Positions 41,301 through 44,300 of a DNA stretch of 64,000 nt are shown one piece after another. How positions within the stretch are numbered: position 1 is the first letter of the stretch; each line of letters opens with the position of its first letter. The position numbers were made by a program, and so were the translations under genes. The notes beneath the pieces were generated by a model. That model made no database searches and was not told where the DNA came from. It saw nothing but the letters and a program-made list of their open reading frames with translations. Source of the stretch: Pocillopora damicornis (lineage: Eukaryota); contig NW_020845425.1 of the NCBI RefSeq assembly GCF_003704095.1, positions 1 to 64,000 on the forward strand, in the 5' to 3' direction.

Positions 41301-44300
41301 CGTCTCAGTGTTTCTTACAAGGGCTAAGGAAGGTCATAGTTAAAAATCAATAAGGAAAGGTCAAACAATGGAAAAAACTTGAAGTCATTGATGTGACAAC
41401 GGCTATTTTGCTGTTCTGTGAAGTTAACTTGTCTGTTGGTGTGTGTTTGTAGTGTTTTATATTGTTCTGAAATGTTCATGTTTTTTTCCAAGTCCTTGTT
41501 TAAATGTGGTACTTTACATTCATTGATTTTAATTCTGTTTAAGGTAAAATATGAGAATTGCTCTTAAAATTTATTATAAGTTTATTTAGTAACTTTTTAA
41601 ATAAGTGGTGTGAAGGTTGGGAAATTGGCAGTTCAGTATTGAAATCAAAGCTATTTCAAATGAAGAACTTCCTGCCTTGAATTTCCTGGACAAGGCAAGT
41701 GGAAAAAGCAGCTGTATTCTTCCAGTTTCTAACCTTGCCCCACCTACATTAATTTAGATTTTGACTTTTTTTGGGAATCTGAATTAAGGCATGAATGAAA
41801 GTGATCCTTGCAGTGATGAGCACTACATGAGCAGTTCACAGCACATCTTTATCCACAGTTCAAATATATGGCTTTTATATATTCTTAGCCATTTATTCAT
41901 CACTTCACGGGTTTATTTGGAACCAACTTAATGACCAGCTCCCAGTTGGCATGTTAGCTCATTTGGTAGAGCCCTACACTGGTATTGCAGAGGTCATGGG
42001 TTCAAATCCTGTACAGGCCTGAATTTCTTTCAGGCCTTATTTTTACTACTGCTCAAGTAGTGCACATTACTGCAAGGATCACTTTCATTCACATCTTTAT
42101 CTGCAGTTCAAATATATGACTTTCAATACATTCTTAGCTGTTTAATCTGAATTAAGTTACACTATTTTGTTACTCTCATTTTCTGAAACATGCCTTACAT
42201 GTTAAATTGTGTAGGGAAATGAGGACTTGTAGGAAATTGCTCAATTCCTGATGAACGTATTATTTATTCTGGGCTTTCATTACAGAATGTCATAACAGGG
42301 AAGTAGTAGATGGTAACAGGAGAAAATCCCCCATTTCTGTAGAAAAAGTAGTCTTGCATGTTAAAATTTGGATAAAAAATTTGAGAATTTTCCATTATCC
42401 AAACTTAATGAGTGTCTCTCTACTCTGTTCTCTTGTTATGATTCACTGGATATGCAAATTGGAAGGTGTTTATCGGTAATCCAATTGAAACAATCTGATC
42501 TACATAAGAAATAGCTATTTTATAAAAGAATTCTGTCAGAAAATGAGAAATAATTTATATATTACAATTACGAAGTTGCATTAGTATACAACAGCATATT
42601 GGGAAGGTCGGTTCAAACAGTGATTGATACAAACAAGTTTACTTGTTGTTGGTAGCCATGTAGTATTTCTGTGCTATTTTACTGTAACCTATTCTTTAAA
42701 ACAATAAATCACCAACAATAGGAAAACAAAAGGTCTACCTTATACATACTAATGCGGCAGATGTGTCAAGTCAATGCATGCACATGCAATTTTTTAACTT
42801 ACACTTTTTTTTAATCACACTTGCATGCAATTTTTTGGCATTTTCTATGTGTCTTTTGATTAACGTATATGGGAGCAGTACTGTACTTCACAGATTGTTT
42901 ATCTTGAAAAAATTGAGTATAAATATTTCAAGTTTGGTGTTTACAATGCCTGTTAATCTTTCCCATTGACAGCCATCTTTCTGGCTTTTGGTTTAATCCT
43001 TTTATTTTTAATGGATTGTGTTCTGTCATTCAAGTGAATATTGTCTTTCTTAGATTCTTACCGCACTAGGATTTTTTGCTGATCTTTACAATGAATTTCT
43101 TTTCTGTCACCAAAAACACCTCAAAATATAATAATATCACTTGATGTATAAACGGCTTAAAGTAAGTTGGCTGAGTTTTCATTGTTTACTCTTCATTTAG
43201 CGCATTGCATACGTACACGTTAACATCGACCTTTTCCTTTCATTTAAAATTGTCAACCATTAATCAAAAGAGCGAGTAAAAGTTAGTCTTCAAGGTGTAT
43301 GCTGTGAGTCAAAATGTCACTGTTTTACAACCTGTTATTGTAAAGTTGGAAGTTTGTTTCTGTTTCATGTATCAGGCCAAGAAAAAGTTTACAAGTGTCT
43401 TGGTGCAGATGTTTTGGAGAATTCCTTTGAGGGCTACAATGCCTGTATTTTTGCTTATGGACAAACAGGTAAAAAGAGAATGCATCAGCTGTGATTTACA
43501 AGGCAGCTTCTCATGCTTGCCTTTCCTTCTTTTAATTCTTCTTCTACTACGTCAGTTCTTTGTGATTACATTGGACTTCATAACGAGATCTGAGCTTAAG
43601 AACTGGCCAGGATCATTGATACCAACAAAGTGTCAGGAATGTATGACAGAGCCATAGAAGGGAGGCATGCTGGGAGGAGGAGGGGGGCATGGGGAAAGGA
43701 GGAGGGGGACATGCAGGAAGGAGGAGGGGGGCATGTGGGAAAGAGGAGTAAAAATGCTCCTCTCCCCTTTATGCTACAGAAACAGTGATACATGTAAGTT
43801 GTGGCAATGGTGTGCTATTGGGTTCTTCACTCATGTAACTGACATCATTCCTTTCTTGTTTTTAGGATCAGGAAAGACATACACCATGATGGGAAGCCAG
43901 AACCAAACAGGGCTGATTCCCAGACTGTGTAATGAACTGTTTGATCGGATTTCAAGTGTAAGTTGAACTTACCATAAATAAGTGGAAGTTGGGCATTGAG
44001 ATGGAATGAACAAAAATGTGTTCAACAAACTATTTATCTATTTATCAAACATTTCACATTTACTTACTAACATACGCCACTACAATCTTTCCCTCAGAAT
44101 GAAGATGAGAACATCACATACAAAGTGGAAGTCTCTTATATTGAGATCTATAATGAGAAAGTCAGAGATTTGTTGTGCCCCAGAGGGTATGTCAATGATA
44201 TCTACATTTGTACAAGCCACAACATACCTATATAGATTTTGCTTCTTTTATTGAGGGTAGCATAGAGGTTCCTGATCCCATTTCATGCACAAGTTTTGAA

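Follow-up and report, generated by a model that had tools for sequence, protein, structure and literature searches.

A tRNA-bearing repeat family of corals with Penelope-type insertion geometry and a possible tRNA-splicing route to a circular template

The insertion at 41776-42156 of the window (the whole 64,000-nt stretch of Pocillopora damicornis DNA analysed here) belongs to a non-coding repeat family that carries a tRNA-like segment inside its unit. Penelope-type insertion geometry, a tandem template and a layout other than that of SINEs are strongly supported across the copies of this family. The self-complementarity of anticodon-loop positions 32-35 in families with an internal tRNA is new here. 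We propose, with nearly even confidence, that this repeat is copied in trans by a Penelope-like element (PLE) and that its tandem RNA folds as a hybrid pre-tRNA, from which TSEN and RTCB would release a one-unit circle, the likely template. The wider proposition, to which we give slightly less weight, is a ribozyme-free, PLE-dependent class of retrozymes comprising at least eight coral families and four palindromes, in which TSEN/RTCB would replace the hammerhead.

Anatomy of the window copy and its neighbours

The initial annotation had described a 355-bp insert with a 13-bp target-site duplication (TSD), and the insert indeed occupies 41789-42143 between the two repeats; the chance of a 13-mer repeat within the searched box is about 2e-4. 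The copy is composed as follows.

41776-41788, no strand: left TSD, 13-bp direct repeat
41792-41835, minus: inverted, 5'-truncated arm, 93% identical to 42048-42091; its outer end is fixed site A, as in relatives
41836-41841, no strand: inter-arm junction, 6 nt, read from the sequence
41842-42089, plus: complete 248-nt unit (period 248, end-to-end alignment with the family consensus, tandem joints in contigs)
41933-41947, plus: leader 5' of the tRNA-like part, common to copies (no variant among the listed rows at 41932-41950)
41948-42020, plus: tRNA-like cloverleaf (ARAGORN, Rfam, compensatory stem changes across relatives)
about 41955-41966 and about 41999-42009, plus: A box and B box, within the cloverleaf
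41979-41982, plus: tRNA positions 32-35, self-complementary, CTGG in this copy
42015-42037, plus: hairpin in which the acceptor 3' strand pairs with the trailer; includes the T-run
42090-42143, plus: tail of about 54 nt that opens the next unit and extends from site A as far as site B
42144-42156, no strand: right TSD, 13-bp direct repeat

Alignments bore out the 248-bp unit, the terminal redundancy of about 54 nt and the 44-bp inverted arm of that annotation: 41842-41898 matches 42090-42147 directly with 84% identity at a period of 248, and 41792-41835 matches 42048-42091 in inverted orientation with 93% identity over 44 bp. ARAGORN and Rfam (RF00005, 53.2 bits) agree with it in placing the tRNA-like segment in the interior of the insert, and inspection of the sequence revealed neither poly(A) nor a simple-repeat tail in this copy. 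A pyrimidine-purine step at -5/-4 of the leader is a possible Pol III start, and the T-run of the trailer, interrupted by C at 42027, resembles a Pol III terminator. In four sequencing runs the majority letter at 41980 is C, which gives CCGG at 32-35. Taken alone, the window copy fits the twin priming of LINEs, in which the start of the direct arm likewise adjoins the end of the inverted arm; twin priming is excluded because of the other copies only.

The window holds three further sequences of interest.

16509-16614, minus: second copy of the family, truncated, 82% identity, ending at site A
15850-16090, no strand: comparator, a PLE 3' end in foldback form; minimal hammerhead core at 16001-16028, 56-nt tail
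1002-1628, plus: comparator, truncated PLE with GIY-YIG-like frame at 1061-1429, hammerhead core at 1535-1568 and inverted arm

The boundary that the 16509 fragment was said to share with the insert is site A, where its minus-strand match ends. The same layout had been described for the foldback and, less firmly, for the PLE fragment. The foldback is bordered by a 14-bp TSD (15836-15849 and 16091-16104); it has a second copy at 48052-48297, and sequence resembling it was seen by eye 3' of the GIY-YIG frames in loci L187, L190 and L232. The PLE fragment has arms at 1036-1063 and 1602-1629, a 9-bp flanking repeat and a frame that matches PF01541 with E 1.8e-4 and 22.2 bits, slightly below the cut-off of 22.6. 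Both comparators are PLE ends with minimal hammerhead cores.

Family-wide insertion geometry

Copy statistics were taken from relatives, namely metagenome loci and family G, a young relative in G001. Sixteen of the 121 metagenome loci lacked the element and were dropped, leaving 105; three of the loci (L038, L092 and L120) have common flanks and are probably one, and two TSD calls (L067 and L097) look like internal repeats. Inverted elements make up 34 of the 105, every one head-to-head, and 35 of the 48 in family G, again all head-to-head. In these insertions the 3' ends lie at two fixed sites, A and B, separated by about 50 nt, each side having one of them, which is how the relatives bear out the earlier remark that one end stops at a fixed boundary and the other runs about 52 nt further. 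Among 23 uncut inverted metagenome elements, 17 combine an A with a B end, two have AA, none BB and four other ends; the corresponding numbers for 34 uncut elements of family G are 29, none, none and five. TSDs of 12-17 bp accompany 26 of 34 family G insertions. PLE insertions in the same data have TSDs of 12-13 bp (one of 19) in six of the nine examined and tails of about 20-40 nt. The units are tandem and 244-368 nt long.

An ordinary tRNA SINE, moved by a LINE and inverted by twin priming, would account for a tRNA-like part with Pol III boxes and for TSDs of 12-17 bp, and for the window copy by itself. It is largely refuted by the relatives and we regard it as very improbable. The outer ends stay fixed whichever inner breakpoints are used, and the 3' ends, judged by position, are site A or B inside the unit and no LINE-like tail; the simple-repeat tail of genuine SINEs in the same data is absent. 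The 5' ends are scattered without a pile-up at the tRNA head, and upstream homology, which makes the tRNA internal, was found in 39 of 40 copies tested. The initial metagenome scan was anchored 5' of the tRNA and was blind to head-start copies; a rescan anchored in the tRNA 3' half removed this bias and gave the same picture. The tabulation of copies against PLEs and SINEs suggested earlier thus came out PLE-like in ends, inversions and TSDs, and a majority of head-start copies was not seen.

The earlier proposal that Penelope reverse transcriptase and endonuclease copy the family is upheld as regards geometry and tandem template, and copying by a PLE protein is likely on these grounds. The search for a partner was empty: no segment common with an autonomous PLE was present among 41 PLE regions of G001, part of a partial genome sample. 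Locus L177, a candidate autonomous PLE whose pLTR seemed to hold a tRNA, was rejected as a separate insertion at a PLE 3' end. Searches of a viral sequence collection gave one unrelated match and otherwise nothing.

Template of the insertions

Arrays reach about seven units, which are nearly identical; in family G, 37 of 73 arms are longer than one unit and 8 of 73 longer than two. The tandem joints were read from contigs of four runs; such joints occur in DNA too, RNA contigs in these runs are not a sign of transcription, and read depth in them does not measure copy number. Private variants are fixed in every copy within the insertion in 23 cases (e.g., 6/6 in L163 and 5/5 in L227) and not fixed in 220; a variant private to one insertion yet present in every unit of its array suggests a monomer step. 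Alleles agree between the two arms in 31 of 32 elements, even though two lineages are common (17 and 14). Mosaic insertion-by-allele cases amount to 19 of 98, five of which come from one nested pair (L234) and the others mostly from a few recurrent sites.

Clusters of 5' ends upstream of the tRNA, which are what linear templates would give, were observed in family G (8 against 3.1 expected at -12 to -1) and in the GATC family (11 against 2.1 expected at -39 to -20), both counts being post hoc and selection-biased. No pile-up occurs at tRNA positions 36-41 (1 against 1.8 expected); linear monomers with that cut are therefore not what usually serves as template.

tRNA fold

Pairs 6:67 and 28:42 are altered on both sides between family G and the window lineage, as is pair 7:66 among subfamilies of the latter. 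Cloverleaf pairing holds in 88.9% of cells over 13 rows, against 73.9% in shuffles. Sequence comparison thus shows the acceptor, D, anticodon and T stems to be kept by compensatory changes. In the internal-tRNA families the A and B boxes are intact and a T-run comes after them, and the pyrimidine-purine step at -5/-4 is present in 9 of 11 units. A shuffle test of the trailer hairpin reached 0.05 in only 1 of 11 units. The repeats score as tRNA genes, with 60 Thr(ggt) calls; a functional tRNA gene was rejected on C33 in 92 of 107 copies and on the location within a mobile repeat. The hammerhead core CTGANGA..GAAA is absent from the ten units scanned and the Rfam scans returned no ribozyme family; a hammerhead-like core motif was seen by eye in the CATG family.

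That the tRNA fold does the job of a hammerhead, as was first suggested, fits these data; the version in which RNase P and/or RNase Z release the template of a PLE-mobilised element at the cloverleaf is not favoured and appears improbable. The conserved acceptor and T stems agree with it, as do the seven family G arms that end at positions 72-80, where 3.3 would be expected. Against it, 5' ends show no excess at positions 1-5 (1 in family G against 1.4 expected), cutting on both sides would split the unit, and the local acceptor stem has a probability of about 0 in 10 of 11 units in read-through RNA. Subfamily L049, moreover, is young (97% to consensus) despite a shortened T stem, and the palindrome is left unaccounted for.

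Self-complementary anticodon loop

Eleven multi-locus tRNA-like repeat families were compared. Positions 32-35 are self-complementary in 8/8 families with internal tRNA and in 0/3 head-start SINE families (Fisher p 0.006); the eight are related and so do not make eight independent tests, the tree of the tRNA part resolving little among them. The sequences are CCGG, CTGG, CTAG, CATG and GATC. Other 4-nt registers are self-complementary in 0/13 rows, except 35-38 in 6/13. Close relatives exchange CCGG and CTAG, as in L208 against the CTAG-TGA family, which are 95% alike outside the loop. The outer pair of 32-35 is always C-G or G-C, both of which splice well in the available text of PMC6614914. 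N32 with the third-last intron base is C-G in seven of eight families and G-C in one, where the register is ambiguous; in GATC the ambiguity is of one base. The consulted portion of PMC10275265 describes a helix register at 32-35 and the pairing of C32 as bulge-helix-bulge (BHB) and A-I features. A loop-fixed pattern search gave no match. Self-complementary 32-35 points to tRNA splicing by TSEN/RTCB or to RNA dimerisation.

Another reading takes the tRNA as a Pol III promoter and terminator cassette only, serving linear multi-unit templates, with palindromes that are inherited or produced by CpG decay; we consider it unlikely. CTAG is also found in genuine tRNA-Ser genes, and a change of CG to TA can arise from CpG decay. 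The boxes and T-run, the -5/-4 step, the excess of family G 5' ends at -12 to -1 and the precedent of Cassandra and Helenus in the available text of PMC10886601 all suit a cassette. A promoter acting at the DNA level, however, could do without paired stems and without a palindromic loop, but covariation is seen in both; CCGG, CATG and GATC loops lack U33, and the private variants in every unit of arrays suggest a monomer step.

Equally unlikely, in our estimate, is that the loop is an RNA dimerisation signal in a PLE-mobilised element, joining two units or two RNAs for a dimeric reverse transcriptase, with no TSEN cut. In the retroviral DIS, a kissing loop is converted to an extended duplex. 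Six-nucleotide palindromes span 31-36 in 10 of 13 rows and, with pair 31:39 mismatched in 10/13 and paired in 3/13, a 9-nt loop results; the predicted dimer helix is 6-8 bp. The usual mismatch at 31:39 is what keeps plain dimerisation a rival, and one PLE protein is a predicted dimer, with extension of both strands (PMC11167929, available part). On the other side, the sole constant core is 32-35, the BHB register; random pairing of RNAs should mix lineages in about half of the elements, against arms of common alleles in 31 of 32; and the kept acceptor, D and T stems and the extra T at position 38 (see below) are left unexplained.

Proposed hybrid pre-tRNA and circle

In the mechanism that we prefer, a Pol III transcript would start just 5' of the tRNA of unit n, read through the first T-run and stop at the second. 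The 5' half of unit n is predicted to pair with the 3' half of unit n+1, and 32-35 with 35'-32', so that the tandem RNA would fold as a pre-tRNA with a one-unit intron. TSEN would then cut at 37/38 in both units and RTCB would close the excised unit into a one-unit circle. Ligation would restore a plain anticodon loop, by which the monomer circle might escape being cut again. With a palindromic loop only multimers would resemble intron-containing pre-tRNA, and scar-free one-unit circles may be the outcome. Sites A and B would be where PLE reverse transcriptase starts, on the two target strands, before rolling round the circle.

Folding is consistent with part of this scheme. With a 4-nt leader, eight of the 11 units form the hybrid acceptor stem (P 0.69-0.98), but 10 of 11 lose it once the leader is 14-18 nt long. 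The stem still forms with shuffled spacers (0.42-0.98) and is therefore not specific to the real ones; these shuffles give no support to a requirement for leader and trailer hairpins in bringing about the hybrid fold. The inter-unit helix has P of about 1 in 5 of 11 units, 0.45-0.48 in two and almost zero in four, namely the Ala, CTAG-TAA, CTAG-ATC and decayed window units; breaking the palindrome lowers it to 0-0.14. One or more extra T at position 38 were observed in 5 of 39 family G insertions, in all their units and on at least two haplotypes, and also in L095 and L009, as expected if the 3' cut were displaced by one base. Other recurrent insertions are present in the tRNA part of metagenome copies.

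[quoted passage not shown] The predicted dimer favours a 6-bp helix (-17.1 kcal/mol against -12.5 for a strict BHB), and a fully paired anticodon-intron helix lowers tricRNA yield in the consulted part of PMC6614914. PLE insertion in vitro does not need hammerhead cleavage, as far as the available text of PMC11167929 goes.

Implications

If the proposed mechanism is correct, it would provide a mobile element with TSEN/RTCB as a processing step, a natural substrate of these enzymes that is not a tRNA gene, an animal RNA that resembles tricRNA and is abundant, and a counterpart of hammerheads in which proteins are the catalyst. The need of PLE-type elements for circular templates would become testable with a small substrate, and the symmetric design is potentially useful for making scar-free RNA circles. 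The repeats may also inflate tRNA counts in cnidarians, Nematostella having more than 17,000 tDNAs (PMC2888827, available part).

Comparison with known systems

The literature searched yielded neither the arrangement described here nor any PLE counterpart of SINEs or Helenus. tRNA SINEs (SINE2) resemble the family in tRNA-derived A and B boxes, high copy number and TSDs; in contrast, the tRNA head is the starting point of the SINE families in these data, which terminate in simple repeats and have no T-run and a non-palindromic 32-35. Helenus and Cassandra (TRIMp3) are likewise non-autonomous with an internal Pol III cassette derived from a small RNA, and a Cassandra transcript runs from one copy into the next, where it ends; both elements have LTRs, PBS, PPT and TSDs of 4-5 bp, and the consulted part of this survey lists no cnidarian (PMC10886601). 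Assignment of the family to Helenus/TRIMp3 was rejected by its 12-17 bp TSDs, head-to-head arms and truncated 5' ends; PLE-type inversions and a conserved cloverleaf distinguish it further.

In the tricRNA pathway of animals, TSEN and RtcB make a circular product from an intron between positions 37 and 38, as described in the available portions of PMC6614914, PMC10485636 and PMC10275265. The prediction for the family shares the helix of 32-35 with the intron end and the C32 proximal pair; it differs in an intron that would be an entire element in permuted form, in the complete pairing of the helix and in the frequent mismatch at 31:39.

Closer in geometry are PLEs and their non-autonomous forms such as MRC1, which, in the consulted parts of PMC8557442 and PMC11167929, share partial tandems, an inverted 5'-truncated copy, AT-rich targets and a one-ended tail between two fixed sites. 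Their tail is 30-40 nt, against about 45-55 nt in the family, which has no ORF and a tRNA-derived core. Animal non-LTR retrozymes are, according to the available text of PMC7229834 and bioRxiv 10.64898/2026.07.22.740005, in corals, non-coding units of 220-370 nt arranged in tandem; they are proposed to depend on PLEs, and their circular RNA monomers can be closed by RtcB in vitro. The family is alike in its non-coding tandem units of similar length; where each retrozyme unit has a type I hammerhead, the ten units scanned here have no such core and carry instead a tRNA fold with a self-complementary loop.

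The window copy and its setting

The following features of the window, in plus-strand coordinates, are relevant here.

1002: Penelope fragment
1670-1832: 163-bp imperfect palindrome, arms 79% complementary, directly after the Penelope fragment
2141-2191 (minus) and 54080 (plus): decayed tRNA-like pieces, resembling relics of head-start SINEs
15850: foldback
16509: independent fragment of the element
17919-18040, 20554-20758, 28408-28611, 28868-29068, 30017-30137 and 44786-44823: MITE-like family of short repeats whose ends are shared and in part inverted
30667-31929 (minus): collagen-like Gly-X-Y repeats, period in multiples of 9
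41776-41788 and 42144-42156: 13-bp target-site duplication (TSD) around the 355-bp element
41948-42020: tRNA-like part of the element
43264-44820: three exon-sized frames matching the kinesin motor domain (profile 53-85, 85-116 and 174-230)
58668-58931: 128-nt tandem pair, 97% identity

The initial annotation had described an insert with a 248-nt period, a tail of ~54 nt, an internal tRNA-like part and a 44-bp inverted arm. These features and the TSD coordinates were verified, the arm having 93% identity, and the fragment at 16509 does stop at the same boundary. The copy in the window has decayed: in the contigs of the sequencing runs, CCGG, C39 and an unbroken T-run result from the majority letters at 41980, 41986 and 42027. 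Kinesin-profile exons (positions 53-230) follow ~1.1 kb downstream, and the element probably lies inside an earlier intron of a kinesin-motor gene. Both the 15850 foldback and the 1002 fragment are ends of Penelope-like elements (PLEs), since each contains a minimal hammerhead core and foldback-like sequence, read by eye, lies downstream of GIY-YIG frames in three fetched loci (L187, L190 and L232).

A 951-base stretch with the element is covered by 2,614 and 2,632 contigs from two DNA runs, and summed depth reaches thousands over the element and ~8-15 over its flanks. Contig cover extends across the whole unit, with loose contig ends at 42088 and 42125. The element is also present in two RNA runs, whose contigs give neither strand, ends nor level, and its tandem joints occur in DNA as well as RNA contigs.

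Insertion geometry in relatives

A metagenome scan, whose pattern is blind to head-start copies, provided at least 120 of an estimated ~2,200 loci. The element was present in 105 of 121, in four well-filled subfamilies. Its 3' ends are bimodal, at site A and at site B ~50 nt beyond, while 5' ends are scattered. Inverted copies occur in 34 of the 105, every one head-to-head, and the outer ends of the 23 uncut ones are AB in 17, AA in 2, BB in none and other in 4. Exact flanking repeats of at least 9 bp accompany 13/67 copies, compared with 0.9% for swapped flanks.

Because of that blindness, a second scan was run on genome contigs with a pattern in the tRNA 3' half; 32 of its 33 loci came from G001, an assembly rich in animal DNA. 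Here a young 249-nt relative, family G, is inverted in 35/48 elements; the 34 uncut ones comprise 29 AB and 5 other, with neither AA nor BB, and TSDs of 12-17 bp in 26/34. The 299-nt GATC family, read by eye, behaves similarly (AB in 8/9 uncut inverted copies, TSDs of 13-14 in 7/9). PLE insertions of the same set have TSDs of 12-13 (one 19) in 6/9. The fixed outer ends agree with a PLE tail that runs from one RT start to the other (PMC11167929 and PMC8557442, partial texts).

Since the outer ends are fixed and the inner breakpoints free, twin priming is ruled out as the source of the inversions. Twin priming, like the retroviral DIS and the invariant U33, is general background here. No partner PLE was found among 41 PLE regions. 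We consider it very likely that the element is a PLE-type non-autonomous element. CTAG-TAA and CTAG-TGA copies (L202, L203, L206, L194, L198, L208) adjoin (TA)n or (TC)n microsatellites, which suggests that these families are served by a different partner PLE.

In G001 (L122-L154 and fetched contigs), an assembly filed as prokaryotic, there are many ~10-kb contigs full of PLEs, animal repeats and tRNA genes of eukaryotic type; they probably derive from the host. Its 620-kb contig C745 includes other tRNA matches and, in AT-rich sequence (L288:1865-2085), an Ala-family element flanked by a 12-bp TSD; a chimeric assembly is likely, and transfer less so.

The tRNA part and its anticodon loop

The A and B boxes of the tRNA part are intact, with a T-run after them. 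Within the lineage, its stems are maintained by compensatory double changes, at 6:67 and 28:42 between family G and the metagenome subfamilies, and at 7:66 among the latter. Across 13 rows, 88.9% of stem cells are paired, more than in any of 500 shuffles or any slid control, an excess to which different tRNA ancestors may contribute. Ten units scanned contained no hammerhead core, and element scans gave no match to an Rfam ribozyme.

ARAGORN on 103 G001 loci revealed other tRNA-like repeats. Among 296 loci surveyed (1.70 Mb; many chosen for tRNA-like or PLE matches, 40 unselected) there were 11 multi-locus families, sorted by upstream homology and blind to the loop: eight with an internal tRNA, forming tandems or head-to-head arms where checked, and three head-start families, with simple-repeat ends where checked. 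Positions 32-35 are self-complementary in 8/8 of the former (CCGG twice, CYGG, CTAG three times, CATG, GATC) and 0/3 of the latter (Fisher p 0.006, the families not being independent). With five rows added, of which four are single copies chosen once their loops were known, register 32-35 is palindromic in 13/13, three other registers in 0/13 and 35-38 in 6/13; positions 36-38 vary. Since a 4-nt palindrome cannot pair within itself, a second copy must supply the partner, and the loop has probably been kept for such pairing.

Positions 32-35 form the helix of the bulge-helix-bulge (BHB), in which the partner of N32 is the third-last base of the intron (PMC10275265, partial text). In a tandem RNA, an intron from 38 of one unit to 37 of the next is exactly one unit, its third-last base being 35'. 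The outer pair of 32-35 is always C-G or G-C, the well-spliced states (PMC6614914, partial text). Animal tRNA-splicing endonuclease (TSEN) depends on the tRNA body, with 37/38 as its sole cleavage site (PMC10485636, partial text), and conservation of the cloverleaf would follow from this. When the leader is 4 nt long, a hybrid acceptor stem joining 5' and 3' halves of successive units is predicted in 8/11 units and an inter-unit helix in 5/11 (partial in 2); the helix is lost once the palindrome is broken. Five of 39 G insertions, of at least two haplotypes, carry an extra T at 38 in every unit. The extra T also appears in two metagenome copies. A displaced 3' cut would have this effect. The full model, a circle made by TSEN and the ligase RTCB, is put forward tentatively, at just under an even chance.

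Several points keep two rivals in play, namely that the palindrome is an RNA dimerisation signal, which seems unlikely to us, and that the tRNA part serves as promoter only, which we judge equally improbable. The hybrid stem is also predicted with shuffled spacers and mostly fails with long leaders, 31:39 is mismatched in 10/13 rows, and predicted stabilities favour a 6-bp helix over the strict BHB; tight helices reduce tricRNA yield (PMC6614914, partial text). CTAG also occurs in real tRNA-Ser genes and is a possible product of CpG decay, the register of the GATC family is ambiguous, and the CATG family also has a hammerhead-like core (by eye). The CATG family (L297, minus, ~1450-1835; L177:531-868, the latter in a PLE 3' end) is possibly intermediate between the retrozyme and tRNA types.

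Template of copying

Of 73 family G arms, 37 are longer than one unit, 8 of them longer than two. Both arms of two-arm elements carry the same alleles in 31/32, although two lineages are common. Of the private variants, 23 are fixed throughout their insertion and 220, mostly in old arrays, are unfixed. Such uniformity fits repeated copying of one monomer; it may alternatively have been inherited from unsampled uniform arrays. 5' ends show no excess at the tRNA head or at 36-41, and are in excess upstream of the tRNA (8 vs 3.1 expected in G, 11 vs 2.1 in GATC), which linear templates could also produce. The GATC ends cluster at unit positions 261-280, which lie 20-39 nt before the tRNA. In family G, positions 100, 130 and 225 show recurrent A>G or T>C changes in single units of separate insertions, which may reflect RNA editing or mutation hotspots. 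At L234:7701-8624, one G element is nested within another of the other lineage.

Comparison with known systems

Neither tRNA-bearing PLE-type elements nor a retroelement that uses TSEN turned up in openly readable full texts (including PMC2888827 and PMC12070523, each in part); the families may already be catalogued in Repbase, Dfam or supplements as SINEs or unknown repeats. Classification of the element as a SINE was rejected. It would act like a non-LTR retrozyme (PMC7229834 and bioRxiv 2026.07.22.740005, partial texts), but the ten units scanned lack the hammerhead that defines that class. A Pol III cassette is shared with Helenus and Cassandra (PMC10886601, partial text); unlike these, the element is not an LTR element.
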